DNA of 64,000 nt, taken from Thermoanaerobaculia bacterium. Lineage in GTDB: Bacteria; Acidobacteriota; Thermoanaerobaculia; Multivoradales; UBA5704. Made by a program: the position numbers and the translations under genes. The number at the start of each line of letters is the position of its first letter. The first letter of the stretch is position 1. Of the stretch, positions 8,732 through 34,488 are shown piece after piece. The DNA lies in assembly GCA_044226625.1 (NCBI GenBank), contig JBGAGQ010000018.1:1-64000 (forward strand). The letters run 5' to 3'. Below the pieces are notes generated by a model. The model was not told the DNA's origin. It ran no database searches and worked only from the letters and a program-made list of their open reading frames with translations.

Positions 8732-9199
8732 CTAGCCGCCGAGGTGGACCAGGAGCTGCCGCTCCCTTCGGCCGCGGCGGTGCTCCCAGAGGAAGATCCC
8801 CTGCCAGGTGCCGAGACCCAGGCGGCCGTCGAGCATCGGAATCGACAGCGAGGTCGCGGTGAGCGCGGCCCGGATGTGCGAGGGCATGTCGTCCGGACCT
8901 TCCTCGGTGTGGGTGTAGAGGGGATCGTTCTCCGGCACCAGGCGCGCGAGAAAGCGCTCGAGATCGCGGCGCGCCGAGGGATCGGCGTTCTCCTGGATCG
9001 TCAGGCTCGCCGAGGTGTGGCGGAGGAACAGCGTGCAGAGTCCGCCGTGGCGAAGGGCTCCGTGCCGGTCGCCCGCTTGGGACGCGTGTTCGGCCTCGCT
9101 CCGGGCCTCCTCGACCATCTCGGCGACGGCCGCGGTCACAGGAAGGGTGATCTCGTGCAGACCCGGCCCGGCGATAGGAAGGTCGAGCGTCCGGATCAC
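8732..9199 (-). CDS. yjbQ: YjbQ / UPF0047 family protein
   Basis: HTSASLTIQENADP, HTEEGPDDMPSHI, LGTWQGIFLWEHR; GTG start at 9199 overlaps the upstream TGA (GTGA). Confidence 0.9.
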   Translation of the reverse strand: MIRTLDLPIAGPGLHEITLPVTAAVAEMVEEARSEAEHASQAGDRHGALRHGGLCTLFLRHTSASLTIQENADPSARRDLERFLARLVPENDPLYTHTEEGPDDMPSHIRAALTATSLSIPMLDGRLGLGTWQGIFLWEHRRGRRERQLLVHLGG

Positions 9200-9816
9200 C
9201 TCGGCTCCTCCGGCCGGCAGGCGCTCCAGCCGGCGTGCTCGGCCGTCGCGCGTCGTCTGCCGGTGGCGGGATCGTCGGGACAGGGCGGAGCGTGGAGGAC
9301 CCAACCCTTCGGAATCTCCGGGATCGGCAGCTCGAACGTGAAGTCCACGCCGTTCCTCTGGAGGGGCCGGCCCTGCACCTGGACCTCGCCGAGCAGGTCG
9401 ATTTCGACCGAGGTGCGGCCCGATAGCTCGACCTGATAGGTCACCGTTCGCGCCGAGATCTCGACGTCCGACTCGATCGTCGTCTCTTCGATCTCCGGCG
9501 CGTCGGACCCCTTCGGGGACTCCGGCAGAGTGAAAGTCAGGCGGTCGGCGCTCTTTTCGACGTGGCCGGGCGGGGAGGTCTCTCCCACGAACGAGGCGCC
9601 CTCCTGCAAGGTGACCGTATAGGAGCGCCCGGGGATCGGGTTCGAGAAGCGAAGGCGGATCTTCGGCGCTTTGGCGGCCGCGACCGTGCTGGCCGCTGGC
9701 GCGTCGGCGGGAGCCGGCTTCGCGGGGACCTCGGGCACCTGGCTCGCCGCGCAAGGGCTCGCGGTCGCGAGAGCCGCGCCGAGCAAGGCGTGGCGGAAGA
9801 GCGGGATGGCGATCAA
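9196..9816 (-). CDS. Hypothetical exported protein
   Basis: TTG start overlapping the MFS stop (TTGA); signal-peptide-like N-terminus, Pro/Ala linker, beta-rich domain; stop coupled to yjbQ. Confidence 0.5.
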   Translation of the reverse strand: MIAIPLFRHALLGAALATASPCAASQVPEVPAKPAPADAPAASTVAAAKAPKIRLRFSNPIPGRSYTVTLQEGASFVGETSPPGHVEKSADRLTFTLPESPKGSDAPEIEETTIESDVEISARTVTYQVELSGRTSVEIDLLGEVQVQGRPLQRNGVDFTFELPIPEIPKGWVLHAPPCPDDPATGRRRATAEHAGWSACRPEEPR

Positions 9817-11330
9817 AGCGGTATCTCCATTTCCATGGCCTGGGCGACGGCGGTCTCGCGCTCGGGATCCGCCCAGGCGAGGTCGCGCGGTTTGCCGGCG
9901 GGGAAGCCGAAAGCGACGACCAACGAGGCGATGCCGATCGCGCCGACGCCCCAGAATACCGCCTGGAGCGCGACGAGAAACGCATCGGACAGCCGCGCGA
10001 GCTCCGCGGCCTGCATGCTCGAGCGGCCGATCGGATCGAGCAGAGCGTTGGCGTCCGCCCCGGCGGGGAGCGCCCGGGAGAGCCGGGATGCGAAAAGCGC
10101 GCCGAGGGCGGCGACGCCCACCGCGCCACCGATCGAGCGGAAGAACTGGACCGAGCCGGTCGCGACACCGCGCAGCCGCCAAGGCACCGCGCTCTGGACC
10201 GCGATCATGTAGGGCATCGAGACGAAGCCGAGGCCGAGACCCATGACGAACAGGATGGTCATCACCTCGACCTTTCCGGTCGCGGCGGAAAGCCGTGCGA
10301 GCGCGAGACCGGACAGCGCGAGGAGGACCCCGCCGAGCAGGCAGAAACGCCGGTAGGAATAGCGGTTCATCAGCCGGCCCGTGATCGTGCTAGAGAGGGG
10401 CCAGCCGATCAGAACCGGTGAGAGCAGAGCGCCGGCGTCGGTGGCCGAGCCGCCGAGCACCCCCTGCCCGAGGATCGGCCCGAAGGCGGTGAGCGCGAAG
10501 AGGAGCGTGCCGAGCAGGGCGTTGCCCACGCAGGAGATCGAGATCAGCCGGCTCTTGAACAGGTCGAGCGGCAGCATCGGCTCCTTCGCGCGGTTCTCCT
10601 GCCAGAGGAAGCCGAGGGTGAGCAGGACGGCCCCGGCGAACGAGCCGAGCGTCCGGGGGTCGCTCCAGCCCCAGACGTCCGGCCCTTCGATCAGGCCGAG
10701 CAGAAGCAGCGTCACCGCGACCGACAGCAGGATCGTGCCGAGCACGTCGAGGCGATGTTCCCGCCGGGGGGGCTCCTCGCGCAGATGCCGGTTGAGCATC
10801 CAGGCCGAGAGCAGACCGAAGGGCACGCCGACGAAGAAGATCGCCCGCCAGGAGAGCGCGTCGGTGAGCAGCCCGCCGACGAGCGGGCCCACGAGGCTCG
10901 AAAAGGCCCATACCGCCGCGAACAGCCCCTGCATCCGGCCGCGTTCCTCCAGGGTGAAGATGTCGCCGATGACGGTTGCCGCGACCGGCATCAACCCGCC
11001 GGCGCCGAGTCCCTGAAGAGCACGAAAAACGATCAGCTGCTCGAGGGAGGTGGAGAGCCCCGAGAGGGCGGAGCCGCCGACGAACAGCGCCACAGCGATC
11101 AGGTAGATCCGGCGCCGACCGAACAGATCGGCGAGCTTGCCGTAGAGCGGAACCGTGGTGGTCGACGTGAGCAGATAAGCGGAGAACACCCAGCTGTACC
11201 GGGAGACTCCGCCCATCGATCCGACCGCCGTGGGCACGGCGGCGGCCACCGCCGTCGCTTCGAGCGCGGCGAGCAGAGAGCCGAGCATCAGGGCGGAGGT
11301 GACGAGCTTTCTTTCGCGTCCGGGAAGCAA
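9813..11330 (-). CDS. MFS drug:H+ antiporter (DHA2/MDR-type, 14 TMS)
   Basis: WVFSAYLL, GKLADLFGRR, FRALQGLGAG, GPLVGG, EPMLPLDLF. Confidence 0.9.
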   Translation of the reverse strand: MLPGRERKLVTSALMLGSLLAALEATAVAAAVPTAVGSMGGVSRYSWVFSAYLLTSTTTVPLYGKLADLFGRRRIYLIAVALFVGGSALSGLSTSLEQLIVFRALQGLGAGGLMPVAATVIGDIFTLEERGRMQGLFAAVWAFSSLVGPLVGGLLTDALSWRAIFFVGVPFGLLSAWMLNRHLREEPPRREHRLDVLGTILLSVAVTLLLLGLIEGPDVWGWSDPRTLGSFAGAVLLTLGFLWQENRAKEPMLPLDLFKSRLISISCVGNALLGTLLFALTAFGPILGQGVLGGSATDAGALLSPVLIGWPLSSTITGRLMNRYSYRRFCLLGGVLLALSGLALARLSAATGKVEVMTILFVMGLGLGFVSMPYMIAVQSAVPWRLRGVATGSVQFFRSIGGAVGVAALGALFASRLSRALPAGADANALLDPIGRSSMQAAELARLSDAFLVALQAVFWGVGAIGIASLVVAFGFPAGKPRDLAWADPERETAVAQAMEMEIPL

Positions 11331-11345
11331 GGGACCTCGGGCTCG

Positions 11346-12374
11346 TCAGGACGGCGTGGAGCCGTCCGAAGGGGGCGGCTCGTCGGCGGTCGCCGGTTCT
11401 TCGCTTGCGGAGTCGTCGACCGACTCCTTCGCCGGCTCGCCGTCCGGCTTGCGCTTGAAGAAATGGTCGAAGGCGGCGCCCGCGGCGGGCGAAGCGGGAG
11501 CGTCCGGCTTCTTCTCGGCCGACGGTTCGTCGACCTTTTTGGGGGTCTTCCGCTCCGTCGACGCGGCGGGCGCCTTTTCGTTCCGGGCCGTCGGCGTCTC
11601 GCGTTTCGTCGCGGGTCCCGTCTTCTCTTCAGCCGCTTGTTCCGGCGGTGGTGTCTCTCCCTTCGCCCCGAAGAAATGGGCGAAGGCTCCCTCCTTCCGA
11701 GGGGCTTCCGTCGTCTCGGTCTTTTGGGGGACGGGTGCGGGTGCCGCGTTCGCCGGCTCCTCTTGGATCGGCTCCGCTTTCACGGATTCCAATCTCGGGG
11801 TCTCCGCCTTCACCGGCTCCGGTTCCTTCGGTTCCGGCTTCGCCGATTCGGCGGCCGGGGCTGCCGGTGCGGGCGCGGCCGGTTCGCTCGGGGCCGGCAC
11901 CGGTGCGGGCTCCTGCGGCGGAGGAGTCTGGGCCGAATCGGCCGAACCGGCTGGTACCGGATCGGCGGCCGCGCTGGGCGTTTTCTTGATACCGAGCGCC
12001 AAGCGCTTGTATCGGTTGGACTCCGCCTCGTCGCCCATCTGGAGCGCCGCGGTCGAGGCCCAAAGCCAGGCGGATGCCGGATTCGACGCGAGATCGCCGG
12101 CGCGCACGAACGCGCGGAGAGCGTCGGCCGGCCGACCGAGGCCGGAGAGGTAGACGACGCCGAGGTCGATCTGGACCTGGGCGAGCGCCTCCCGGTCGAC
12201 CCCTTCGAGCTCCCGGCTCGCGGCCAGGTAGTGTTCGGCGGCCGCCGCGTAGTCGCCCCGGCCGAACGCCTCCTTGCCGAGCGCGCGGTGGTCCTCGGCG
12301 CGCGCGACGGAAACATGGAGCAGGGCCAGCAGGGCGAGGGCGGCGAGGTGAGGTAGACGGTTCGTCGTGCGCAT
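11346..12374 (-). CDS. Exported TPR protein with long Pro/Ala/Glu-rich disordered tail
   Basis: Signal peptide from ATG 12374 (MRTTNRLPHLAALALLALL..ARA), TPR-like helices, low-complexity C-terminus. Confidence 0.65.
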   Translation of the reverse strand: MRTTNRLPHLAALALLALLHVSVARAEDHRALGKEAFGRGDYAAAAEHYLAASRELEGVDREALAQVQIDLGVVYLSGLGRPADALRAFVRAGDLASNPASAWLWASTAALQMGDEAESNRYKRLALGIKKTPSAAADPVPAGSADSAQTPPPQEPAPVPAPSEPAAPAPAAPAAESAKPEPKEPEPVKAETPRLESVKAEPIQEEPANAAPAPVPQKTETTEAPRKEGAFAHFFGAKGETPPPEQAAEEKTGPATKRETPTARNEKAPAASTERKTPKKVDEPSAEKKPDAPASPAAGAAFDHFFKRKPDGEPAKESVDDSASEEPATADEPPPSDGSTPS

Positions 12375-12460
12375 GGTCGAAGTCTCCGAAGCGGAGGAGA
12401 GGATCGTAGCTGAAGTGGATCGCTTCGGCCCGAGAGTCCAGCGCCGTCGGCCCTGCCGAA

Positions 12461-13567
12461 TCAGACCGCGGTGGCCTCCAGGATCCACATCGGGCTCGCG
12501 GTCGGATGGACGCGTACGAGGTCGAACCCCGCCGCCGCGAGCAGGCGGCAGAACTCCTCCCGCCCGCGCTCGCGGCCGCCGTCGCAGGCGACCAGCATGT
12601 GGAGGTCCACCTTCGCCCCGAAGTCTCGCGCGTCGTTCCGCTCGACGATCGACTCGACCACCAGCAACTTCGACCCCGGGGTCGCCGCCCGGCGGCAGGC
12701 GCCGAGGATTTCGAGGCAGCGCGCGTCGTCCCAGTCGTGGAGCACCTGTTTGAGCAGGTAGCCGTCGCATCCCGGGGGGATCGAATCGAAGAAGCTCCCC
12801 TCCACGCGTTCCACGCGGTCGAGCACGCCCTGTCGTTCGAGATAGGGGACCGCCTGCTCGAGCACGCCGGCGGAATCCAAGAGGACACCGCGGACGCCGG
12901 GGTGGCGCCGAAGGATCGCCGCGAGCATCGTGCCGCGTCCGCCGCCGAGGTCGGCCAGGCGTTGGAGGCCGGAAAATACCGGCTGGGAAGCGACGGCCGG
13001 CGCGTACATCTCCGTGATCGCCCCCATTGCCGCCGCGAACGTGGCCTGCTCCTCGGGATGAGCCTCGAACCAGGTCCAGATCGAGCTGCCGTGGACGCGT
13101 GGAAAGGCGTTGTCACCCCGCTCGACCGTCCGGGTCAGATCGGCCCAAGCAACCACCGTCGCCTCCGAGCCGAAGTACTCGGCGACCGGGCCGATCGCTT
13201 CCCGGTCGCGCCGCAGGGTCTCCGAGAGGCGGTTGTTCGAAAAGCGCCCGGCGGAATCGAGCCGAAACACCCCCGTAGCCGCGAGCGCTCGAAGCATGCG
13301 ATGGAGCGCGTCGGGATCGGCGCCGACCTCGCGGGCAAGCTCGGCCGCGCTTCGCGGCCCTCCTGCGAGCCGGTCCGCAATCCCGAGCTTGGAGGCGCTC
13401 CGGATCGCCTGGGTCTGTCCGGTCCCCGCCGCGCGGTCCACCATCGCCGCGCTCGCCGGGACCATCCGATCGGCGAGCGCGAGGAGGCCCCGGCGCAGGG
13501 CGAGCGCGACCCGCGCCGCGAAGCGTGGCGGGGCCAGGGGGAGCGGTGGAGGGGTGGGGGAGGCCAA
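12461..13567 (-). CDS. SAM-dependent O-methyltransferase (Methyltransf_2 with dimerisation domain)
   Basis: ADLGGGRG, GSFF, YLLKQVLHDWDD, PGSKLLVVE, GRER. Confidence 0.9.
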   Translation of the reverse strand: MASPTPPPLPLAPPRFAARVALALRRGLLALADRMVPASAAMVDRAAGTGQTQAIRSASKLGIADRLAGGPRSAAELAREVGADPDALHRMLRALAATGVFRLDSAGRFSNNRLSETLRRDREAIGPVAEYFGSEATVVAWADLTRTVERGDNAFPRVHGSSIWTWFEAHPEEQATFAAAMGAITEMYAPAVASQPVFSGLQRLADLGGGRGTMLAAILRRHPGVRGVLLDSAGVLEQAVPYLERQGVLDRVERVEGSFFDSIPPGCDGYLLKQVLHDWDDARCLEILGACRRAATPGSKLLVVESIVERNDARDFGAKVDLHMLVACDGGRERGREEFCRLLAAAGFDLVRVHPTASPMWILEATAV

Positions 13568-13587
13568 GCGCCACCGAGTCTACAGGA

Positions 13588-13622
13588 CGGGTTCGCAGGG
13601 CGGGTTCGCAGGGCGGGTTCGC
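13588..13622. repeat. 13-bp tandem repeat (CGGGTTCGCAGGG x ~2.7) in a divergent intergenic region
   Basis: Copies start at 13588, 13601 and 13614. Confidence 0.7.
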
Positions 13623-13707
13623 CGCAGCGCCGGAGTCCTCCGAAAAGGTCCTCGCCAGGCCGCGGAAACCCGAGGTAAGTACAAGAAACAGAAGGGTTCT
13701 GCGTCGC

Positions 13708-13736
13708 TTGTTCCGGGTGGTCACAAGTGCTAGACT
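13708..13736 (+). promoter_or_regulatory. Putative sigma70 promoter of nuoB-CD-I
   Basis: TTGTTC-N17-TAGACT with extended -10 TG; SD GAGGAG upstream of ATG 13761. Confidence 0.5.
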
Positions 13737-13760
13737 GACGAGCCCGAGGAGCACATCGAC

Positions 13761-14294
13761 ATGGAAACCAAAACCGTCGGAGAAAGCTGGGTCACGACCA
13801 AGTTCGAGGCCCTGGAAGACTGGTCGCGGCGCCATTCCTTCTGGCCCTTCCCGTTCGGCACGGCCTGCTGCGCGATCGAGTTCATGGCCACCGTTTCGGC
13901 CCATTACGACGTGGCCCGCTTCGGCTCGGAGGTCGTGCGGTTCTCCCCGCGCCAGAGCGACGTGCTGCTGGTCGCCGGGACGATCAACGACAAGATGGGG
14001 CCGGTCCTGAAGCGCATCTACGATCAGATGGCCAACCCCAAGTGGGTGATCTCGATGGGCGCCTGCGCCTGCTCGGGCGGCTTCTATCGCTCGTACCACG
14101 TGATGCAGGGGATCGACGAGATCATCCCGGTCGACATCTACGTTCCCGGCTGCCCGCCGACGCCGGAGGGTCTGATGTACGGAATCCTCCAGTTGAAGGA
14201 GCGGGTGGTCCGCGATCGCCGGCGACACCAGGAGCAGCAGAAGAACGACAAGGAGAGCAAGCGTGCCGACGTTGGCCGAGCCGTCCCTGCTTGA
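13761..14294 (+). CDS. nuoB: NADH-quinone oxidoreductase subunit B
   Basis: FGTACCAIE, SPRQSD, PKWVISMGAC, VDIYVPGCPP. Confidence 0.95.
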   Translation: METKTVGESWVTTKFEALEDWSRRHSFWPFPFGTACCAIEFMATVSAHYDVARFGSEVVRFSPRQSDVLLVAGTINDKMGPVLKRIYDQMANPKWVISMGACACSGGFYRSYHVMQGIDEIIPVDIYVPGCPPTPEGLMYGILQLKERVVRDRRRHQEQQKNDKESKRADVGRAVPA

Positions 14295-20313: not shown

Positions 20314-22002
20314 TCAGCGCGCGAGCGCCGATTGGACCTCTCGCCAGCTCGACGCGGCGGCCAGGGCGTTGCGCCGCGTCGGGTCCTTGGCGAGGCGGGC
20401 GATCTCGGAGAGGAGGGTGAGGCAACCTTCCGGCCGCTCCTCGGGGCAGAGCAGCAGGAACATCAACTCGACCGTCGATTCGCCCCCGGCGGGGGAGCGG
20501 AGGACGGCCAGCGCGAGCCGCGGCTCGCTGAGGCCGGGAATCCGCGCGTGGGGGACCGCGATCCCTTCTCCGAGATAGGTCGAGGCTTCTCGTTCGCGCA
20601 GCTCGAGGTGGCGGAGCACGTCGGAAGGATCCAGTCGGGTCCCGGCGAGCAGCGGTTCGAGGAGGCGTTCCATCAGCTCCCCGCGTGAAAGCGCTTCGCG
20701 CAGGAAGAACGTTCGTTCCGGCCGAAGAATCTCGGCGAGGCGGCCCACGGCGCGCCGTGGATTGGCGAGCGGCGGCGCAGCCCCAGCGGCCGCCGGCCGC
20801 TCCACCCCCTCGGCGGGCCGCTCGGCGAGATGGGCCATCTCGGCCTGCTGGGCCCATTCCGCCGGATGCGGAGACGGCGCTTCCTCCGCCGGAGCAACGG
20901 CGGGGTCGACGACCACCACGGCGAGCCCCGAGGCGCGGACGAGGAGGGTGTCGACGAGCGAAGGTCGGAGGAAGCGAAGGATGCCTTTCCTCGGCGTCGA
21001 GCGGCCGATCACGACGTGGCCGGCGCGGACTTCGCGGGCGAAGCGGAGGATCGTCTCGACCACGTCGTCGCCTCGAAACGTGAAGACGGTCGCGCCCAGC
21101 TGGCGCGCGAGCTCGAGCGTTTCGGCCAGCCGGGCTTCCGTTTCCGGCTCGAGCTGTCGCTCGGCGGAGGTGCGGACGTAGAGCGCGTACCAATTGCGGT
21201 CGAGCTTGCCCGCGAGACGAGAGGCGTAACGGAGAAGGGCGTCGGCACTCGGGCTCTTCGACGAGAGGCAGGCGACGACCTGGTCGGGCGCTTCGACGGA
21301 CGTACCCTCCGAGCGGCCTCGGCGCTCCAGCACGGACGCCGCCTCGCGAAGCGCGAGCTCGCGCAGCTGCTCGAGGGGCCGGGTACGAAAGAAGTTCTGG
21401 AGCGCGGCCGCCGCCCGTTCCGGTGGGTAGATCCGCCCCTCCTCGAGGCGTCGTCGCAGATCCTCGGCGGCGAGGTCGACGTTGACGACCTGATCGGCCT
21501 CGGCGAGCACCCAGTCGGGAATCCGTTCCTTGACCTTCACTCCCACCAGCCGCTCGACCGTGTCGTACAAGCTTTCGAGGTGCTGGATGTTGAGGGTGGT
21601 GATCACATGGATCCCCGCGGCGAGCAGGTCCTGGACGTCGAGGTAGCGCTTGGGATGAACGCTGCCCGGCGCGTTGGTGTGCGCGAGCTCGTCGACCAGC
21701 ACCACCTCGGGCTTCCGTTCGAGGATCGCGGCGAGGTCCATCTCCTGGAGCTTCACCCCACGGTAGGTGATCTCTCGCGGGGGAACGGCGTCGAGCCCGA
21801 GGACCAGTGAGGCGGTGTCGGCACGCCCATGGGTCTCGACCACGCCGATCTCGACGTCGATCCCTTGCGCTTTCAAACGGTGCCCCTCGAGCAGCATCTG
21901 GTAGGTCTTGCCGACCCCGGGGCCGTAGCCCAGGTAGACCTTGAGCCGACCGCGCCGCGCGCGGTGGATCAGCCGGAGGAAGCTCTCGGGGCTCTGGGGC
22001 AT
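20314..22002 (-). CDS. kdpD: KdpD N-terminal sensor domain + USP domain + PTS EIIA domain; no TM or kinase domain
   Basis: GRLKVYLGYGPGVGKTYQML, VETHGR, LVDELAHTN, TTLNIQHLESL; USP-like segment; C-terminal REREASTYLGEGIAVPHAR (EIIA phospho-His motif). Confidence 0.88.
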   Translation of the reverse strand: MPQSPESFLRLIHRARRGRLKVYLGYGPGVGKTYQMLLEGHRLKAQGIDVEIGVVETHGRADTASLVLGLDAVPPREITYRGVKLQEMDLAAILERKPEVVLVDELAHTNAPGSVHPKRYLDVQDLLAAGIHVITTLNIQHLESLYDTVERLVGVKVKERIPDWVLAEADQVVNVDLAAEDLRRRLEEGRIYPPERAAAALQNFFRTRPLEQLRELALREAASVLERRGRSEGTSVEAPDQVVACLSSKSPSADALLRYASRLAGKLDRNWYALYVRTSAERQLEPETEARLAETLELARQLGATVFTFRGDDVVETILRFAREVRAGHVVIGRSTPRKGILRFLRPSLVDTLLVRASGLAVVVVDPAVAPAEEAPSPHPAEWAQQAEMAHLAERPAEGVERPAAAGAAPPLANPRRAVGRLAEILRPERTFFLREALSRGELMERLLEPLLAGTRLDPSDVLRHLELREREASTYLGEGIAVPHARIPGLSEPRLALAVLRSPAGGESTVELMFLLLCPEERPEGCLTLLSEIARLAKDPTRRNALAAASSWREVQSALAR

Positions 22003-22006
22003 GGGG

Positions 22007-22606
22007 CTATTTTCGAACGTCCAAAGCGAGGTTCAACTCGAGAACGTTGACCCGCGGCTCGCCGAGCAGGCCGAAGGTACGCCCCTCGGTGTGAGCGGCG
22101 ACGATCCGGCGGACCTCGTCCTCGGAGAGTCCGCGCTCGCGCGCGACGCGCGGCAGCTGGAATTCCGCGGCCGCCGGGGTGATGTGCGGGTCCAGCCCGG
22201 AGGCCGACGCGGTGACGAGATCGACGGGCACCGCGCGATCGGCGGCGCCGTTTTCGGCTCGCGCCGCCGCGACCGCCGGGACGATCCTCTCCTCGATCAG
22301 CTTTCTGCTCGTCGGCCCGAAATTGGTGCCGGCCGAGGAGGTTCCGTCGTAACCCGCGCCCGCGGCGGACAGCCGGGAGCGGAAGTAGCCGGGCCCCGTG
22401 AAGGGTTGGCCGATCAGGCGCGAGCCGATCACCGCACCCCGTGCGTCGCGAATCAGGCTTCCCTCGGCCTGGTTCGGAAACAGCAGGCGGGCGAGGCCGG
22501 TGACGACCATGGGGTAGGCGAAACCGAGAATCGCGGTGAGCACGAGCGTCATCCGGATCGCCGGACCGAGATGCTTCCACCAGGAGGTCGAAAGGTTCTC
22601 GTTCAC
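22007..22606 (-). CDS. kdpC: K+-transporting ATPase subunit C
   Basis: [42 protein letters not shown]. Confidence 0.95.
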
Positions 22607-22616
22607 GTGAGGCTCC

Positions 22617-24755
<2,139 letters not shown>

Positions 24756-24777
24756 ATCGATCTCGGGCTCTCTTCGG

Positions 24778-26568
<1,791 letters not shown>

Positions 26569-26891: not shown

Positions 26892-28790
26892 TCAGCCTGC
26901 GGCTGTTCCGGAAGTGGACGCCACGGGCAAGCTGAACCAGAACGTCGTCCCGGCGCCCTCTTTCGACTGGACGTGGATTTCGCCGCCGTGGGCGTGGACG
27001 ATCTCCTTGGCGATCGACAGTCCGAGGCCGGCGCCGCCGACGTCTTCGGTTCCGGGAACTTGATAGAAGCGGTCGAAAATTCGATCGAGCTGATCGGCAG
27101 GAATTCCCTTACCGGTATCGGCGACCGAGAAACGGACGTATTTCTTGTGCGCCTCGGCGCGAACGACCACGCTGCCGCCCGCAGGCGTGTGGTGAAGCGC
27201 GTTCGACAGAAGGTTCGAGAGGACCAGCCTGGCGCGCGCCGGATCGGCGAGCACCCTGGGCGCCGCAGGATCGATCTCGACCTTGAGCTCGATGCCCGCG
27301 TCCTCGAACTCGGGGCGGAATTCGTTCGTACGCGCTTCCACGAAGTCGCGGGTTGCGACCGGTTCGAGGCGTAGGAGCTGGCGGTCGGACTGAAGGCGGG
27401 ATAGCTCCAGGAGGCTCTCCACGATCTCGCGCAGGCGCTCCGCGTCGTCGCGCGCGACCATCAACAGCTCCGTCTGCTCCTTGTTGAGCTCTCCGAGCTT
27501 TTCGCCGAGCAGAACGTGGACCGCCATCTGGAGCGAGGTCAACGGCGTTCGCAGCTCATGGGAGACGGTGGACAGGAGTCCGCTCTTCATCTCGTCGACC
27601 CGGCGCAAATCGGTGACGTCCGAGAGGATCAGGGTGGTCCCTTGCAGGCGCCCCTCCGCGTCGCGGATCGCCACGGCGTGAGGCAGGAAGAAATTCTCCT
27701 TGCCCTCTTTCCAGACTTGGATCGCCGCCTCGAAACCGCGTTCGGGTGGGGTGCCGAAACGACCCGCGAGATCCGCGGCATGATCGACGGTGGCGAGCAG
27801 GGGCCTCAGCCACTGGCTATGACGTTCGGGGATCGGCGCTCCCGGCGCCAGACCGAAGTCTGAAATCGCCGTACGGTTCGCCAGCTCGATCCCGCCCTCC
27901 GGCGATAGGAGCGCCACCGCGTCGGGAAGGCTGTCGATCGCGAGCTGGGAAGTCTGTTGCGCCCGGAGGAGCTTCGCCTGATCGGAGCGGCGCAACTCGC
28001 GAAGGCTGCTCGCCATGGCGTTGAACGCCTCCGCGAGTTGCCCGAGCTCGTCGCGTGAAGGTACCGGAACCACGAGATCCAGGTGTCCGCGCTCGATCTC
28101 GCGGGCCGATTCGGTGAGCCGGCCGAGCGGACCGAGGATCGCCCGAGAAAGAAAGGCGACGAGGCCGATCGCCAGCGCCGCGCCGGCTGCGAGAAGCAGA
28201 ACCATCCGGTGACGCGCCGAGGCCGCGAGCGCGCGAGCCCGGTCGTTCGCCTCGACCATGTTCGCCTGGTTGAGCGCCAGGATCTCCTCTGCGTTCCGCT
28301 TGATCTCTTGAAACCGGGGAAGGAGCTGAGAGAAATAGGCTCGACTCCGTTCCGTCGCGGGCCGGCCGTCGTCCAACACGAGCGGCAAGGAGGAGACGTA
28401 GGTCTGGAAGAGGTCGCGGACCCGCTCCGCGCGCTCTCGCTCCCCTTCGATCGTGATGTTGCCGAGCTCGATCTTGAGTGCCGCTTCGAATCGGGGGCGC
28501 TGGAGGTCGACCAGCGCACGGCCGCGGTCGGCGTCTCCCGCCAGGGCGAACAGGGCGCCGCTGTCGATCCGCTCGAGCGCTTCGGTCATCTGCTGCGCGG
28601 CGATCACGCTCTTGTAGTTCTCGCGCAGGATGACGTCGATCGAGCCGCCGAGCCGTTCGAGCATCGAAATGCTTTGCGCGCCGACCACGAACAGAAGCGC
28701 GAGCAGCCCGCCGAAACCGAGGGCCAGCTTCCAGCGAAGGCCGAGGCCGGAACGTGGGGTCGGGGAAGAGAACGAGGTGGAGTCGGTCAT
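26892..28790 (-). CDS. Membrane sensor histidine kinase (periplasmic helical sensor-HAMP-PAS-HisKA-HATPase), KinB-like
   Basis: Two TM segments, DELGQLAEAFN, SHELRTPLT, NLLSNA, DTGKGI, GLGLSI; start reassigned to ATG 28790 with GGAG SD. Confidence 0.9.
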   Translation of the reverse strand: MTDSTSFSSPTPRSGLGLRWKLALGFGGLLALLFVVGAQSISMLERLGGSIDVILRENYKSVIAAQQMTEALERIDSGALFALAGDADRGRALVDLQRPRFEAALKIELGNITIEGERERAERVRDLFQTYVSSLPLVLDDGRPATERSRAYFSQLLPRFQEIKRNAEEILALNQANMVEANDRARALAASARHRMVLLLAAGAALAIGLVAFLSRAILGPLGRLTESAREIERGHLDLVVPVPSRDELGQLAEAFNAMASSLRELRRSDQAKLLRAQQTSQLAIDSLPDAVALLSPEGGIELANRTAISDFGLAPGAPIPERHSQWLRPLLATVDHAADLAGRFGTPPERGFEAAIQVWKEGKENFFLPHAVAIRDAEGRLQGTTLILSDVTDLRRVDEMKSGLLSTVSHELRTPLTSLQMAVHVLLGEKLGELNKEQTELLMVARDDAERLREIVESLLELSRLQSDRQLLRLEPVATRDFVEARTNEFRPEFEDAGIELKVEIDPAAPRVLADPARARLVLSNLLSNALHHTPAGGSVVVRAEAHKKYVRFSVADTGKGIPADQLDRIFDRFYQVPGTEDVGGAGLGLSIAKEIVHAHGGEIHVQSKEGAGTTFWFSLPVASTSGTAAG

Positions 28791-29006: not shown

Positions 29007-30365
29007 ATGCCCACCCGAGAGAGCCGACCGCTGCTCGACATCCTGATCGTCGACGACGAGCCGAACATCCGTCGTACTCTCAGTCTGCACCTTGGAGGCG
29101 CGGGACACCGGGTGCGCGCCGCGGCGAGTGTCGGGGAGGCGCTCGTGGCCGCTCGAGAGGGACGGTTCGACCTCGCGCTGGTCGACCTGCGGCTCGGATC
29201 CGAATCGGGTCTGGACCTGATACCGCGACTGCTCGCCGAGGATCCGGCGATGAAGATCCTCGCGATCACGGCTTACGCCTCGGTCGAGACCGCGATCGAG
29301 GCGATGCGGCGGGGTGCGCGAGACTACCTGCCGAAACCCTTCACGCCGGCCGAGCTCGACCTCGCGATCGCCAAGCTGGTCGACCTCTCGCGCCTGGAGC
29401 GCAAGGTGGCGGCGCTCGAAAGCGACCTCGCCGAGGCGGAGCCCGAGCTCGAGCTCGCAAGCGAAAGCCCGGCGATGCGGGCCCTGCTCGACCTCGCGCG
29501 GCGCGCGGCCGACGGCGACGCCCGCTTGTTGATCCGCGGCGAGAGCGGCACCGGCAAAGGAGTGCTCGCGCGCGCGATCCACCGCATGAGCCCGCGGCGC
29601 AACCGGCCGTTCGTGACCGTCTCCTGCCCGTCGCTCCCCGCGGAGCTGCTCGAGAGCGAGCTGTTCGGCCACGCGAAGGGCGCCTTTACCGGCGCCACCC
29701 GCGACAGCGCGGGCCGCGTGGCGCTCGCAGAGGGAGGGACGCTCCTGCTCGACGAAATCGGCGATCTGCCGCGCAACCTCCAACCGAAGCTGCTCCGCTT
29801 CGTGCAGGACCGCGAATACGAGCGAGTGGGCGACCCGGCGACCCGGCGCGCCGACGTGCGCATCCTGGCGGCCACGAACCAGGACCTCGAGACCGCGGTG
29901 GCCGAGGGACGCTTTCGCGAAGACCTGCTCTACCGGCTCGACGTCCTGACCCTCTCGATCCCGCCGCTGCGCGATCGTCGCGAGGACGTGTTGCCGCTCG
30001 CCCGCCGGTTCCTGGCCCTCTTCGGTCGCCAGTACGGTCATCCGGGAAGCGAGTTCTCTCCCGCAGCCGAGCGCACGCTTCTCGATCACGCCTGGCCGGG
30101 CAACGTGCGCGAGCTCAAGAGCGCGGTCGAACGCGCCGCGATGCTCTCGCGGGGTGGAAAGATCGGACCCGAGCTTTTGCTGCTCAAGGGGAGCCCGGCG
30201 GCACCGGCCGGCCCGAACGTCGGCGATCTCGTGCCGCTCGCGGAGATCGAGCGCGAGCACGTCGAGCGAGTCGTGGCGCGCACGGGCTCGCTCAAGGAAG
30301 CGGCGGAGGTTCTCGGCATCGATCCGGCGACGCTTTGGCGTCGGCGTAAGACCGCTGGAGGGTAG
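29007..30365 (+). CDS. Sigma54-dependent response regulator (REC-AAA+-Fis HTH), AlgB/NtrC-like
   Basis: IVDDE, LVDLRL, GESGTGK, ESELFGH, GAFTGA, FREDLLYRL, WPGNVREL, C-terminal HTH. Confidence 0.95.
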   Translation: MPTRESRPLLDILIVDDEPNIRRTLSLHLGGAGHRVRAAASVGEALVAAREGRFDLALVDLRLGSESGLDLIPRLLAEDPAMKILAITAYASVETAIEAMRRGARDYLPKPFTPAELDLAIAKLVDLSRLERKVAALESDLAEAEPELELASESPAMRALLDLARRAADGDARLLIRGESGTGKGVLARAIHRMSPRRNRPFVTVSCPSLPAELLESELFGHAKGAFTGATRDSAGRVALAEGGTLLLDEIGDLPRNLQPKLLRFVQDREYERVGDPATRRADVRILAATNQDLETAVAEGRFREDLLYRLDVLTLSIPPLRDRREDVLPLARRFLALFGRQYGHPGSEFSPAAERTLLDHAWPGNVRELKSAVERAAMLSRGGKIGPELLLLKGSPAAPAGPNVGDLVPLAEIEREHVERVVARTGSLKEAAEVLGIDPATLWRRRKTAGG

Positions 30366-30465: not shown

Positions 30466-31104
30466 ATGTTGACGCTCTACTTCCTGCGCCACGGTCAGAC
30501 GGAATTCTCGCGCGACGACACCTTTTGTGGCTCCGGTCTCGATCCCGGGCTCACCCCCGAGGGGCGGGCGATGGCCGCGGCGTTCGCGGGCGATTACGGC
30601 TCGATGCCGTGGGCGGGCATCTACGCGAGCCCGCTCCGCCGGACGATCGAAACCGCGCGCGCCCTCTGTGGCGCATGGAGGGCCGGCCTCGAGGTGCGCG
30701 ACGGTCTCAAGGAGATCGGCTACGGCGCTTGGGAGGGGAGGACCCGCGCGGAGGTCGAGCGCGACCACCACGACGACTACATCCGCTGGGAGGCCGACCC
30801 CGCTTGGAACCCCCCGACCGGCGGCGAGCGGGGGATCGTCATCGCCCGCCGGGTGGCCGAGGTGATCGAGGAGATCAAAGAGCGCCACCAGGACGGGCCC
30901 GTCCTCGTCGTCTCGCACAAGGCGACGATCCGGATCGCCCTGTGCGGTCTGCTCGGAATCGACGTGGGGCGATTCCGCTATCGCCTCGCCTGCCCGGTGG
31001 GCAGCGTCTCGATCGTCGAGTTCGGCAACAACGGTCCGCTGCTGCGGTCGCTCGCTGACCGTGCGCATCTGCCCGCGGACCTTCGGGCGCTGCCGGGAAC
31101 CTGA
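30466..31104 (+). CDS. Histidine phosphatase (phosphoglycerate mutase-like)
   Basis: LRHGQT, SPLRR, EIGYGAWEG, VVSH; start at ATG 30466. Confidence 0.9.
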   Translation: MLTLYFLRHGQTEFSRDDTFCGSGLDPGLTPEGRAMAAAFAGDYGSMPWAGIYASPLRRTIETARALCGAWRAGLEVRDGLKEIGYGAWEGRTRAEVERDHHDDYIRWEADPAWNPPTGGERGIVIARRVAEVIEEIKERHQDGPVLVVSHKATIRIALCGLLGIDVGRFRYRLACPVGSVSIVEFGNNGPLLRSLADRAHLPADLRALPGT

Positions 31105-31162
31105 CCTTGCTACACTCGGATTCCGCAGCGTCCTGATCCGCTCACCCGCCCCGGAGGTCTCG

Positions 31163-32497
31163 ATGTCGAACGACCCGAACACCCAGCGCCTCGCCCTGAT
31201 CGTCGACGACGAGCCGGGGATCTTGACCACCCTTTCCGGCATCCTCGCCGACCGGGGGTACGGCACGCTCTGCACCGCGTCCGGGAACGAGGCGATCGAC
31301 CTTTATCGGGGGCATCGCCCGGACGTCGTCTTCCTCGACATCTGGCTTCCCGATCGCGACGGCCTCGAAACGCTCCAGGCTTTGCGCGCGGACGACCCCG
31401 CCGCGGCGGTGATCATGATGTCGGGGCATGGGACGACGGCGACGGCGGTCAAGGCGATCAAGATGGGGGCCTACGACTATCTCGAGAAGCCGCTGTCGCT
31501 CCGCCGCGTGGTCGAGGCGGCCGAGGGGGCGATCGACCAGAAGCTGGCGCTTGGATTCCGGGGGACGAACGGCGAAGGCGGTGAGAGCGGGGCGACCCAC
31601 GCGGCCACGGGTCCGGATCTAGAGCGCCAGATCGCGCCGCCCCCTCCTCTTTCCCTGCTCGCGCCGTCCGGCCGGCGCCAGCGGACGATCCGCCATTCGA
31701 CGGTGATCTACGGCCTGGGCCTGCACTCGGGCGCGCGCACGGGCATGGTGATCCAGCCTCTCCCGCCCGACAGCGGCATCCATTTCTACACCCTGCCCGG
31801 GGGCCAGATGATTCCGGCTCACGTCTCGCAAGTGGCCGACACCGACTACGCCACGACGATCGGTCGCGATGGCGACAGCGTCCGCACGGTCGAGCATTTT
31901 CTGTCCGCCCTGCACGCGGCGGGGATCTCGAACCTGTTGATCAAGCTCCACGGCGAGATTCCGGTGCTCGACGGCTCGTCGGTCGAGTTTTGCCGGCTGC
32001 TCCGAGAGATCGGCGTCGAAGAGCAGGACGAGGAGCAGCAGGAGCTGGTGATCGACCGCGTCTACGAAGTGGGGAGCGGAGAAAAGAAGCTCACGCTCGA
32101 GCCGTTCGACGGCTTTTCGGCCTCGTACCGCCTGCGTTACCCGGCACCCGTAGGCGAGCAGGAGCACGAGTTCGTGCTCACGAGCTTCGAGGTTTACGAG
32201 CGCGAGATCGCCCCGGCTCGGACCTTCGGTTTCATGAAGGACCTCAAGATGATGGCCGAGCTCGGGCTCGGATCGGGCGGCCGGCTCGACAACTTCATCC
32301 TGGTCGGCGAGGACGACGTGCTGAACACGGAGCTCCGCTTCCCCGACGAGTTCGCCCGCCACAAGATTCTCGACATCGTCGGCGATCTCTACCTGCTGGG
32401 CTATCCCATTCGCGGCAAGGCCACCGCGAGCCTCACCGGCCATCGCGACAACATCGCGATGCTCAAGCAGATCTGGGCCGAGGCCGGGGCGTCGTAA
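31163..32497 (+). CDS. lpxC: Receiver domain fused to UDP-3-O-acyl-GlcNAc deacetylase LpxC
   Basis: REC: IVDDE, LDIWLP, MSGHG, EKP; LpxC: QRTI..GLGLHSG, TVEHFLSAL, EIPVLDGSS, ARTFGF, RHKILDIVGDL, GH; SD GGAGG. Confidence 0.92.
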   Translation: MSNDPNTQRLALIVDDEPGILTTLSGILADRGYGTLCTASGNEAIDLYRGHRPDVVFLDIWLPDRDGLETLQALRADDPAAAVIMMSGHGTTATAVKAIKMGAYDYLEKPLSLRRVVEAAEGAIDQKLALGFRGTNGEGGESGATHAATGPDLERQIAPPPPLSLLAPSGRRQRTIRHSTVIYGLGLHSGARTGMVIQPLPPDSGIHFYTLPGGQMIPAHVSQVADTDYATTIGRDGDSVRTVEHFLSALHAAGISNLLIKLHGEIPVLDGSSVEFCRLLREIGVEEQDEEQQELVIDRVYEVGSGEKKLTLEPFDGFSASYRLRYPAPVGEQEHEFVLTSFEVYEREIAPARTFGFMKDLKMMAELGLGSGGRLDNFILVGEDDVLNTELRFPDEFARHKILDIVGDLYLLGYPIRGKATASLTGHRDNIAMLKQIWAEAGAS

Positions 32498-32546: not shown

Positions 32547-33410
32547 ATGCTTTTCCTTCGCCGCCGCTCGCTGGAGCTCGTACTGTTCCTCGCTCCCGTC
32601 GCGGTCCTCGGATGTTTCGGTCCGACGGCCGGCGGGAAAGGATCCCGTACGCCGGGCATCGCTCCGCTCGGCGAAGCGGCGGTCGAGATCCGAAAAGGCA
32701 CCCCGGAGAGGGAGAGGATCCGCCTCGCGCCTCGCGGAATCGCCTACGGCCGCATCGGCGGCGCGGTCGAGCGGGCGGTCTATTCGAGCGACGACGTTCG
32801 CGAGGAGCTCGCGGCGCTGACCGGGGCCTACGCGCCGTTCAATCTCGTCGTGGGTTCCTCGAGGATTCGATTTCTCGGCCGAGGGGCGGCCGAGGCCTCG
32901 CCCGCCGAACGCCGGAGGATCTCGGAATGGGCTCTCTTCCTCGCGGCGGAGTCTTCGGGAGCGGGGGACGGGGTGCCGGCGCCGATCCTCTTCTGGCAAC
33001 GCGGAGGTGAAGGCGAGGCTTGCGACCGTCTCGGCATCGATCGCACCGCCGCGGTCTCCGGAGGGGCCTGCGGCGGCCTGGAGACCTCGCGACGTCTGGC
33101 CGGAGCGGATCTCGAAAAGCTCTACGGTTGGTTCGATCGCCTGGGACCGTTCGAAACCAGCTGGCTCGAGGGGCCGCCGGACGAGCAGCGGACGTTCCGC
33201 ATGGTCTTCGCGGGCGCTGGGCGATCCGGAGCGGGGGAGAGGGAGCGCGCTGAGATTGCCGTCTGGGCCGCGGAGGTCGCGGCGGATTTGAAACTCGAGG
33301 GGTCGCCTCGCTTTGCGCCCGCTCCTCGCCGCCTACCACCCGCTCCGCTCGCGCTGCCGGTCCGTTCGCCGATGCCGCCGCTTCTGCCTAGAACCAGCCC
33401 TTCTTTTTGA
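32547..33410 (+). CDS. Hypothetical protein, possible lipoprotein
   Basis: Fills the gap; N-terminal hydrophobic stretch ending VLGC; 3' end overlaps the corA 3' end by 23 bp. Confidence 0.5.
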   Translation: MLFLRRRSLELVLFLAPVAVLGCFGPTAGGKGSRTPGIAPLGEAAVEIRKGTPERERIRLAPRGIAYGRIGGAVERAVYSSDDVREELAALTGAYAPFNLVVGSSRIRFLGRGAAEASPAERRRISEWALFLAAESSGAGDGVPAPILFWQRGGEGEACDRLGIDRTAAVSGGACGGLETSRRLAGADLEKLYGWFDRLGPFETSWLEGPPDEQRTFRMVFAGAGRSGAGERERAEIAVWAAEVAADLKLEGSPRFAPAPRRLPPAPLALPVRSPMPPLLPRTSPSF

Positions 33411-34488
33411 AGAAGAGGATCAAGGCGAGGGCGACCGCCGCCATCAAGCCGAGCGCGAACGGATAGCCCATGACCCAATGGAGCTCGGGCATATTGAAGC
33501 GACTGACGGTGGAGTCGAAATTCATGCCGTAAACACCGGCGATGAAGGAGAGCGGAATGAAGATCGAAGACAGGATGGTGAGGACCTTCATGATCTCGTT
33601 CATGCGGTTGCTCGCGCTCGACAGATAAACGTCGAGCATGCCGCCGGCGAGCTCGCGATAGGTCTCGATCACGTCGATCGCCTGCACCACGTGGTCGTAG
33701 CAGTCGCGTAGGAAGACGCGGGTCTCGGCCGTGATCAGCTCCGAGCCGTCGCGCAAGATCGCGTTCAGGAGGTCGCGCTCCGGCCAGGCGGCGCGGCGCA
33801 ACATCAAGAGGTCGCGCTTGATCTTGTGAATCTGGTTCAGCAACCCCGGGGAGGGGCGGCCGATCAGCTCGTTCTCGAGCTTCTCGACCTCTTCGCCGTA
33901 ACGTTCGAGGACGGGGAAGAACTCGTCGATCAGCGCGTCGATGAGCGCGTAGGCGAGGTAGTCCGATCCGCGCTTACGAATCAAGCCGCGCCCCAGCCGG
34001 ATCCGCTCCCGAACCGCCTCCCACGAATCGCCGGGGATCTCCTGGAACGTGACCACGTAGCCCCGACCGAGGAAGAGGCTGATCTGCTCGCCGATCAGGT
34101 CGGTTTCGTGCTCGATCTGGACCGAGCGGAGGATCAGGAACTCGTGGTCGTCGTACGGCTCGACCTTCGGGCGCTGGCCGCAGTTGACCACGTCTTCGAG
34201 CGCGAGCTTATGGAAGCCGAAACGCTCGCCGAGCCGGGCGATCAGCTCGACGTCCGAGAGACCTTCGACGTTGATCCAGGTGACGCTGTCCCGCTCTTTG
34301 TAGGCGAACGCCTCTTCGATCCTGTCGAGGGTGCGTTCCTCCAAGTGATCCGGGCCGTAGTCGATGAGAGTGATCTTCACCGACCCGCCGCCCTCGGGGG
34401 CGGGGGCGAGGATGCCGGGCGCGCTACCAGGGCGGAAGCCGGGGCGCTTCAGATGGATTCGACGACCTTTGGATCGAGACCGCGCCAT
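33388..34488 (-). CDS. corA: CorA Mg2+/Co2+ transporter
   Basis: WINVEG, HKLALED, QRPKVE, NEIMKVLT, GVYGMNF, MPELHW; start reassigned to ATG 34488. Confidence 0.93.
   Translation of the reverse strand: MARSRSKGRRIHLKRPGFRPGSAPGILAPAPEGGGSVKITLIDYGPDHLEERTLDRIEEAFAYKERDSVTWINVEGLSDVELIARLGERFGFHKLALEDVVNCGQRPKVEPYDDHEFLILRSVQIEHETDLIGEQISLFLGRGYVVTFQEIPGDSWEAVRERIRLGRGLIRKRGSDYLAYALIDALIDEFFPVLERYGEEVEKLENELIGRPSPGLLNQIHKIKRDLLMLRRAAWPERDLLNAILRDGSELITAETRVFLRDCYDHVVQAIDVIETYRELAGGMLDVYLSSASNRMNEIMKVLTILSSIFIPLSFIAGVYGMNFDSTVSRFNMPELHWVMGYPFALGLMAAVALALILFFKKKGWF

Follow-up and report, generated by a model that had tools for sequence, protein, structure and literature searches.

Does a two-component signal act directly on LpxC, the control point of lipopolysaccharide (LPS) synthesis and a major antibiotic target? 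The question is raised by a gene found in a stretch of 64,000 nucleotides from a Thermoanaerobaculia bacterium of the Acidobacteriota (assembly GCA_044226625.1, contig JBGAGQ010000018.1, positions 1 to 64,000 of the forward strand; hereafter the window), which encodes in one chain a response regulator receiver domain (REC) followed by an LpxC domain. Our analysis confirmed that this REC-LpxC fusion is real, conserved and not rare.

The fusion gene (Table 1) is a single open reading frame (ORF) without interruption. Its longest form extends from a GTG start (31061-32497), and the ATG start at 31163 agrees with the N-termini of the fusion orthologues. According to Pfam, the protein shows a Response_reg domain (PF00072; 98.9 bits, cut-off 30.2) and an LpxC domain (PF03331, UDP-3-O-acyl-GlcNAc deacetylase; 274.9 bits, cut-off 27) that matches positions 1-267 of the 268 of the profile, and the chain terminates six residues past the LpxC match. 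The receiver has the signature residues D15-D16, D59 in FLDIWLP, S87 and K109-P110. The LpxC domain has H188, E244, H245, T354, F355, H400, K401, D404, D408 and H427, which include the motifs E244-H245, H400-K401-x-x-D404 and, with G426, G426-H427. A semi-conserved ER..PPPxLxLL motif lies ahead of LpxC in the linker between both domains. Pfam and the alignments thus bear out the initial annotation, which had described one ORF with a complete receiver, a Gly/Pro-rich linker and an LpxC retaining the EH, HKxLD and GH motifs. No FabZ domain was found in the protein with Pfam, and neither were AAA+ or HTH domains; since it lacks AAA+ and HTH_8, the window protein is a derivative of the NtrX/NtrC family rather than a member of it. 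A sigma70 promoter scan at the fusion locus found none, and terminator-like sites at the locus were at chance level only.

The closest solved relative of the LpxC domain was 5u39_A (E 8.7e-52, full-length alignment), which we take to be LpxC of P. aeruginosa, and H245, H400, D404, E244 and H427 align to the TVEH, HKILD and SGH of 5u39. In E. coli LpxC, the zinc ligands and catalytic residues are H79, H238 and D242, and E78 and H265; zinc, catalytic and phospho-chemistry roles in the fusion were assigned on the assumption of equivalence with E. coli LpxC and CheY. The best solved match of the receiver was 4d6x (E 4.2e-22), entitled 'Bacterial regulatory, Fis family protein', and other top matches were 5m7n, 'Nitrogen assimilation regulatory protein', and the NtrC-family chain 1zit; 4d6x and 5m7n presumably correspond to Brucella NtrX. 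These matches, and the placement of the receiver among NtrC-type receivers in the tree given below, agree with its earlier description as NtrX-like. The AlphaFold2 (AF2) model of the fusion has a mean pLDDT of 89.4 and a pTM of 0.72, although pTM alone says little. It shows a receiver with five strand-helix pairs in the (beta-alpha)5 pattern, a long alpha5 helix at residues 113-136, a disordered segment at residues 136-149 and a confident one at residues 150-170. Co-folding of the receiver (residues 1-135) with the linker and LpxC (residues 150-444), without controls, gave a score of 0.00, which speaks neither for nor against a contact between them.

Conservation was analyzed by aligning 53 diverse fusion proteins, with identities down to 35%. 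In the receiver, D15, D16, S87 and K109 are kept in all 53 proteins and D59 in 52, the exception being P0143, which shows an Asn; in a smaller alignment, Asp59 is invariant in 24 of 24 fusion proteins. In the LpxC domain, all 53 proteins keep E244, H245, H400, K401, D404, D408 and H427; T354 is present in 52 and H188 in 50.

The junction between both domains was found in independent data. A contig of 757 nt assembled from a public run, which may be the source sample, spans positions 31436-32192, which reach from the last part of the receiver into LpxC, with zero mismatches and a depth of 17.3 (16-17 in the flanks); public runs with a small share, X2-X4, gave short or diverged pieces only. In a large protein search, 120 of the 120 matches listed contain both Pfam domains, and their source names include Acidobacteriota and Thermoanaerobaculia. 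Full-length in-frame fusions are present in 33 of 41 order-level relatives, two more being cut at contig ends, and in 41 of 151 sampled genomes of the class. Because the fusion is conserved across relatives, and with a mismatch-free contig over the junction, a chimeric assembly, against which the initial annotation had asked for a check, is excluded. Two order-level relatives, G022 and G036 (96 and 94% complete, respectively), show receiver-level matches only; 41 candidates were scored per genome, which is possibly a limit of the search.

The genome has 6.6 Mb in 133 contigs, with 97.9% completeness and 5.5% estimated contamination. Its single PF03331 match is the REC-LpxC gene, so that the search for a second lpxC proposed in the initial annotation gave none, and LpxB, the LpxA C-terminal domain and LpxK also have one match each. 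The fusion is the only LpxC in this genome and, judged by its residues, looks active. The YejM N-terminal domain (PF11893) was not found in the genome by profile search, and neither was the LapB zinc-ribbon (PF18073), although the latter negative has little weight, as the control for this profile was unspecific and also matched Gram-positives. Among the 41 class genomes with the fusion, it is the only LpxC match in 33 and is accompanied by a stand-alone LpxC in eight. Of the other genomes among the 151, 109 have only a stand-alone LpxC, with about 36-44% identity, and one has no match. These tallies include G044, G135 and G165, which are flagged as unpublished and are all of stand-alone type; excluding them, the fusion is present in 41 of 148 genomes. 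No locus was drawn from these three.

A candidate for the partner of the receiver came from order-mates that lack the fusion. In three of them with stand-alone LpxC only (G016, G027 and G031), the best non-fusion matches to the fused receiver show 51-53% identity and are located a few kb from lpxC. They belong to regulators encoded in an operon with the order lpxC, a DUF4390 gene, a kinase of about 740-800 residues (HAMP, PAS, HisKA and HATPase_c) and the REC-AAA+-HTH_8 regulator, the latter identified with Pfam in G027 and G016 and with tblastn in G031 (66% identity, residues 4-451). The window genome keeps the DUF4390 gene and the NtrY-like kinase on another contig, C14 (G000:C14:59196-61937). 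This kinase (59688-61937 of C14) is 64% identical to that of G027 (E 1.2e-258) and has a weak NtrY_N match; however, the pair is flanked upstream by smpB, not lpxC, and downstream by a convergent sugar-transferase gene, not a regulator. The initial annotation had expected a cognate kinase elsewhere in the genome, and this NtrY-type kinase with its DUF4390 partner is a much better candidate than the kinase of the window. In locus L034 of G016 (9086-13793), genes for a Ser/Thr protein kinase and a MacB/FtsX-type permease are inserted between the NtrY-like kinase and the regulator.

An orthologue of the kinase is present in 145 of the 151 genomes of the class (142 of 148 if the three unpublished genomes are excluded), and kinase loci from 49 genomes were mapped with four proteins by tblastn. 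In fusion-only genomes, 20 of 21 loci have neither an upstream lpxC nor an adjacent downstream NtrX-like regulator, and in most of these 20 a detectable DUF4390 gene precedes the kinase. In stand-alone-only genomes, 19 of 20 loci show lpxC, kinase and regulator clustered, with the exception of G058, and the full cluster is also found in seven of the eight loci from genomes with both LpxC types, with the exception of G011. Linked cluster and orphan kinase are both present inside the families f1, f17 and f20; therefore, the association is not a single inherited event. The locus of the fusion-bearing G057 (L057, 4655-9483) has an NtrX-like regulator after the kinase and, upstream, a weak partial LpxC-like match (31% identity, residues 48-244), and may be an intermediate or decaying state.

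Fusions are also found in several other phyla. A protein library of representatives at 50% identity contains short fusions and proteins of 650-736 residues. All 15 long forms scanned show REC, a sigma54-type AAA+ domain, an AAA lid and LpxC; HTH_8 is above the cut-off in five of the 15 and GAFTGA is present in none. Absence of GAFTGA is typical of NtrX. A crude Walker B pattern matched no AAA+ domain in these long forms, a result that allows no interpretation. Forms with REC-HTH_8-LpxC are P0133 and, just under the cut-off, P0142. The source labels of these proteins are Deltaproteobacteria, with one cluster named 'NtrX' in IMG, Candidatus Entotheonellia and Nitrospinota. P0121, P0125, P0130, P0134, P0144 and P0145, as well as those of loci L090, L095 and L098, join a whole NtrX-type regulator, in some with a Fis-type HTH, to LpxC; such REC-AAA+(-HTH)-LpxC proteins may be bifunctional.

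A scan of species-representative genomes gave 33 loci in which a single gene encodes receiver and LpxC; their titles name Thermodesulfobacteriota, Nitrospinota, Desulfomonile, Syntrophobacteraceae, Thermodesulfovibrionia, Candidatus Binatia, Holophagae/Holophagales, Thermoanaerobaculia, Terriglobia and others. A full-length NtrY-like kinase is directly upstream of the fusion, on the same strand, in 12 of these loci: none of the 11 labelled Acidobacteriota and 12 of the 22 others. The upstream kinases are 31-39% identical to the C14 kinase, mostly over roughly residues 30-750, and the remaining ones match it over about residues 280-750, some with an additional short match at the N-terminus. Pfam shows the order DUF4390, kinase (NtrY_N/HAMP/PAS/HisKA/HATPase_c) and REC-AAA-HTH_8-LpxC in L095, and DUF4390, kinase and REC-LpxC in L104; in both loci, stop and start codons overlap. 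Kinase followed by fusion is also found in L090, L101 and L107. From this gene order, the fusion sits in other phyla in the ntrX slot of a plrP-ntrY-ntrX module.

Receiver sequences were compared across the window genome. Among the receivers of the genome, the fused one gives the highest score with all three lpxC-linked NtrX-like response regulators (RRs) (115-120 bits). At the positions of alpha1 and beta5-alpha5 common with the linked RRs, the fused receiver agrees in 23 of 30, the receiver of a paralogue on C69 in 19 of 30 and the rest in 15 or fewer; the alpha1 and beta5-alpha5 segments face the kinase. Of the full-length matches to the linked regulator, that on C69 is the best (51%); it was considered as a relocated ntrX and rejected, as G016, G027 and G031, which keep the linked regulator, have separate orthologues of it with 69-82% identity. 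In an unrooted tree of the LpxC domain (103 rows, 276 columns), 36 stand-alone representatives and three stand-alone LpxCs of the class split from the fused forms with 98% SH-aLRT support. In a receiver tree (85 rows, 128 columns), one group with 87% support within the NtrC-type receivers unites the long and the REC-HTH forms with the short ones of Acidobacteriota. The trees fit, rather than prove, one old fusion that would have been followed by domain loss and lateral spread.

On these grounds, we hold it somewhat probable that the fusion derives from a two-component NtrYX/lpxC system and that the C14 kinase phosphorylates Asp59 and so sets the output of LpxC, in place of transcriptional control. 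The fusion would have originated from a module of DUF4390 (a PlrP-like periplasmic protein), NtrY-type kinase and NtrX-type regulator genetically tied to lpxC, and the AAA+ and HTH parts would have been lost in this lineage; some relatives still appear as REC-AAA+-HTH_8 plus LpxC. The orphan DUF4390/NtrY-like kinase pair on C14 would phosphorylate Asp59, and the phosphorylation state would raise or lower LpxC output through catalytic activity, oligomeric state or stability. The receiver may block the active site, switch the oligomer via the long alpha5 helix or mark the protein for degradation; in CheB, the receiver occludes the active site. Transcriptional control of lpxC by NtrYX, as in Alphaproteobacteria and Desulfovibrio, would thereby have become a direct, post-translational control of the enzyme. 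On this reading, outer-membrane lipid synthesis may be controlled by a membrane sensor kinase on the enzyme itself and not via gene expression. A broader proposal is more tentative, and as a whole we consider it possible rather than probable: DUF4390, NtrY kinase and REC-LpxC would form a transcription-free envelope loop, in which the periplasm-facing pair senses the envelope and throttles LpxC, which catalyses the committed step towards lipid A, by phosphorylation, replacing FtsH/LapB/YejM in Acidobacteriota and other phyla, and the REC-AAA+-HTH_8-LpxC proteins would be bifunctional and midway in the shift. As regards the direct two-component control claimed in the initial annotation, architecture, residues and sole copy stand, and the control by phosphorylation is what we still infer.

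Several observations weigh against control by the C14 kinase. We infer phosphotransfer from this candidate by gene order only. LpxC is normally monomeric, a state in which the action of a receiver is not obvious. The margin of the fused receiver over the C69 paralogue is small (115-120 against 108-119 bits), and the fused receivers and the lpxC-linked regulators share only a group of 81% support that also holds other receivers. The stand-alone rows of the LpxC tree are a selection of best hits to the query, and P0155, P0173 and P0182, short 'stand-alone' proteins that are perhaps fragments, fall among the fused forms. The fusion-only G057 retains a regulator beside the kinase, seven of the eight genomes with both LpxCs keep the full lpxC-kinase-RR cluster, so that the kinase has another partner there, and 10 of the 22 fusion loci without an Acidobacteriota label lack an adjacent NtrY-like kinase. 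Finally, related genomes are not independent samples.

Alternatively, the receiver would be a true phospho-switch served by another donor, either the kdp-linked kinase of the window, another kinase of the genome or acetyl phosphate. A kinase and an NtrC-type regulator are encoded just upstream of the fusion, the order NtrC, His_Phos_1 and fusion is conserved in the genus, a search with the C-terminal part of a kinase found 32 kinase-like matches in the genome, and an NtrY-like kinase adjoins the fusion in none of the 11 Acidobacteriota-labelled loci and none of 20 diverse loci of the class. We nevertheless regard another donor as unlikely: the upstream context is lost outside the genus, the window kinase heads kdpABC, the receiver of the window NtrC-type regulator is only 38.6% identical to the fused receiver, other receivers being closer, and it is exactly in fusion-only genomes that the NtrY-like kinase is an orphan, and in other phyla it shares an operon with the fusion. 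The earlier claim that the kinase is not adjacent thus holds in part; a true partner elsewhere is likelier, but a kinase does lie near the fusion, at the head of the kdp operon, and is the less likely partner.

Less likely still is a receiver that does not signal and has a constitutive role in dimerisation or as a scaffold, with LpxC regulated otherwise or unregulated. The long alpha5 helix of the AF2 model and the lack of a kinase adjacent to the fusion in this lineage are compatible with it, and some NtrC-family regulators dimerise via a long alpha5 helix; however, retention of the phosphorylation-chemistry residues in 52-53 of 53 proteins down to 35% identity is unexpected for a purely structural module, and the fusion is operon-linked to a kinase in other phyla. 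It is also very unlikely that LpxC is constitutive and the fused receiver mainly a phosphate sink or reporter, through which LpxC abundance would act back on the NtrY pathway: the seven genomes with an NtrX-like regulator beside the kinase and a separate REC-LpxC are compatible with such a competition, but in 20 of 21 fusion-only genomes there is no NtrX-like regulator beside the kinase to modulate, and no orthologue of the linked regulator was found elsewhere in G009 and G171 with the query used. An artefact of assembly or gene calling that joined two genes, which a draft of 133 contigs with 5.5% estimated contamination might have suggested, is refuted by the same stop-free frame in 41 of 151 genomes of the class, in the 120 top matches of the protein search, from many sources, and in named records of several phyla, and by the independent contig that exactly bridges the junction. 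Phosphorylation of the fused receiver by the C14 kinase is the reading that we retain.

The features of the fusion and its neighbours are collected in Table 1.

Table 1. Location of the REC-LpxC gene, its parts and neighbouring genes in the window.
Feature	Positions	Strand	Basis
REC-LpxC fusion gene, protein P0001, 444 amino acids plus stop	31163..32497	+	ORF, Pfam
Shine-Dalgarno-like GGAGG, 6 nt before the ATG	31152..31156	+	Direct sequence reading
Receiver (Response_reg) domain, residues 12-120, NtrX/NtrC-like	31196..31522	+	Pfam, PDB matches, AF2 secondary structure
Asp59 codon, predicted phospho-acceptor (FLDIWLP)	31337..31339	+	Fusion protein alignments
Extended alpha5 helix and Gly/Pro-rich linker, residues 121-172	31523..31678	+	Alignment, AF2 model
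LpxC domain, residues 173-438	31679..32476	+	Pfam, PDB matches, alignments
His_Phos_1 (histidine phosphatase superfamily) gene, ends 58 nt before the fusion	30469..31104	+	Pfam
Sigma54/NtrC-type response regulator	29007..30365	+	Pfam
HAMP-PAS-HisKA-HATPase kinase, 2.6 kb upstream of the fusion, heading the kdpABC operon	26892..28550	-	Pfam

The order NtrC-type regulator, His_Phos_1 and fusion is conserved within the genus only (L003-L007), and 20 loci from diverse genomes of the class show no shared neighbour of the fusion, save one deep clade. In this deep, partly low-GC clade (L019-L022, from G043, G051, G055 and G059) the order is CoA_binding_2, REC-LpxC, ECF sigma, hemE and hemN, and the linker of the fusion is charged and helical, not Pro-rich. 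In the window, an ORF of 287 residues without Pfam match (32547-33410, plus strand) is located 50 nt 3' of the fusion, and is followed by a convergent gene for a CorA Mg2+ transporter (33388-34488). The NtrC-type regulator is divergent from the kinase of the kdp operon. The kdp region (20314-22002, 22007-26568 and 26892-28550, all on the minus strand) encodes a KdpD-N/Usp/EIIA-2 protein without kinase core, the kinase being separate. In E. coli, EIIA-Ntr (PtsN) binds KdpD, and the KdpD-N/Usp/EIIA protein may thus be another fusion of interacting partners.

Regulation of LpxC is mechanistically understood in few Proteobacteria only, where it involves proteolysis or protein partners. A receiver on LpxC would be a different regulatory logic, directly testable, with a named candidate kinase and a periplasmic co-sensor. 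If true, it would give independent support to NtrY/NtrX as envelope regulators at root, a link based earlier on pleiotropic transcriptional effects only. Furthermore, the fusions offer a graded natural series, from whole regulator plus enzyme, through receiver, HTH and enzyme, to receiver plus enzyme, for the study of control moving from transcription to protein.

As far as seen, the architecture is recorded in databases as a domain pair and is apparently unstudied. Full-text literature searches, which cover few subscription journals, found no description of a receiver-LpxC protein, in agreement with the initial annotation, which knew of no functional characterisation, and the words 'fusion', 'fused', 'receiver' and 'response regulator' do not occur in a 2025 review of lipid A regulation. 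The architecture check proposed in the initial annotation gave the distribution described above, with the fusion in 41 of the 151 genomes sampled from the class and also outside this phylum. New here is the orphaning of the DUF4390-kinase pair in fusion-only genomes, as opposed to the lpxC-DUF4390-kinase-regulator operon in fusion-less class-mates.

Transcriptional control of lpxC by systems of the same kind has been described. In two Alphaproteobacteria, R. sphaeroides and C. crescentus, lpxC is repressed by NtrYX, apparently indirectly, and in a deletion strain the transcript increases 8.8-fold and LPS about two-fold (PMC7240162, PMC12444477 section 10). A study in D. vulgaris reports lpxC as the single mapped target of DVU2934, an NtrC-type regulator, and in S. 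fumaroxidans lpxC adjoins the operon orthologous to that of DVU2934 (PMC3333781). The window fusion agrees with NtrYX and DVU2934 in the two-component kind and in the target, LpxC, and lpxC is clustered with that system in the relatives with stand-alone LpxC. However, those regulators bind DNA or act indirectly on transcription, whereas the window receiver is covalently joined to the enzyme. DUF4390/PlrP has been proposed (PMC13001219) as a third component of NtrYX-family systems, which would restrain the phosphatase activity of the kinase from the periplasm. In Bordetella PlrP-PlrS-PlrR, the DUF4390 gene directly precedes that of the NtrY-type kinase (PMC13001219), and the same pair is found in the window genome, L095 and L104; PlrR, however, is a transcription factor, and the survey is limited to Proteobacteria and, in its available part, reports no LpxC link.

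Post-translational control of LpxC is known from FtsH/LapB/YejM proteolysis in E. coli and from MurA-LpxC activation in P. aeruginosa (PMC12444477). Both act, like the proposed switch, on the LpxC protein and not on its mRNA; the phosphorylation logic differs. LpxC-FabZ, reported from Chlorobium and others (PMC516016), joins LpxC to a functionally linked partner of the Rosetta-stone type, as REC-LpxC does, but it carries a pathway enzyme at the C-terminus, whereas REC-LpxC carries a signalling domain at the N-terminus. As to layout, the fusion resembles the regulators CheB, PleD, WspR, RpfG and RssB, in which an N-terminal receiver, a flexible linker and a C-terminal effector are under the control of Asp phosphorylation. 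Among them, the methylesterase CheB, the cyclases PleD and WspR, and RpfG are response regulators with enzymatic output, and RssB is a proteolysis adaptor; unlike all of these, the output of the fusion is a lipid A biosynthetic metalloamidase. The fusion is thus a combination of two known kinds, response regulators with enzymatic output and the control of LpxC by NtrYX.

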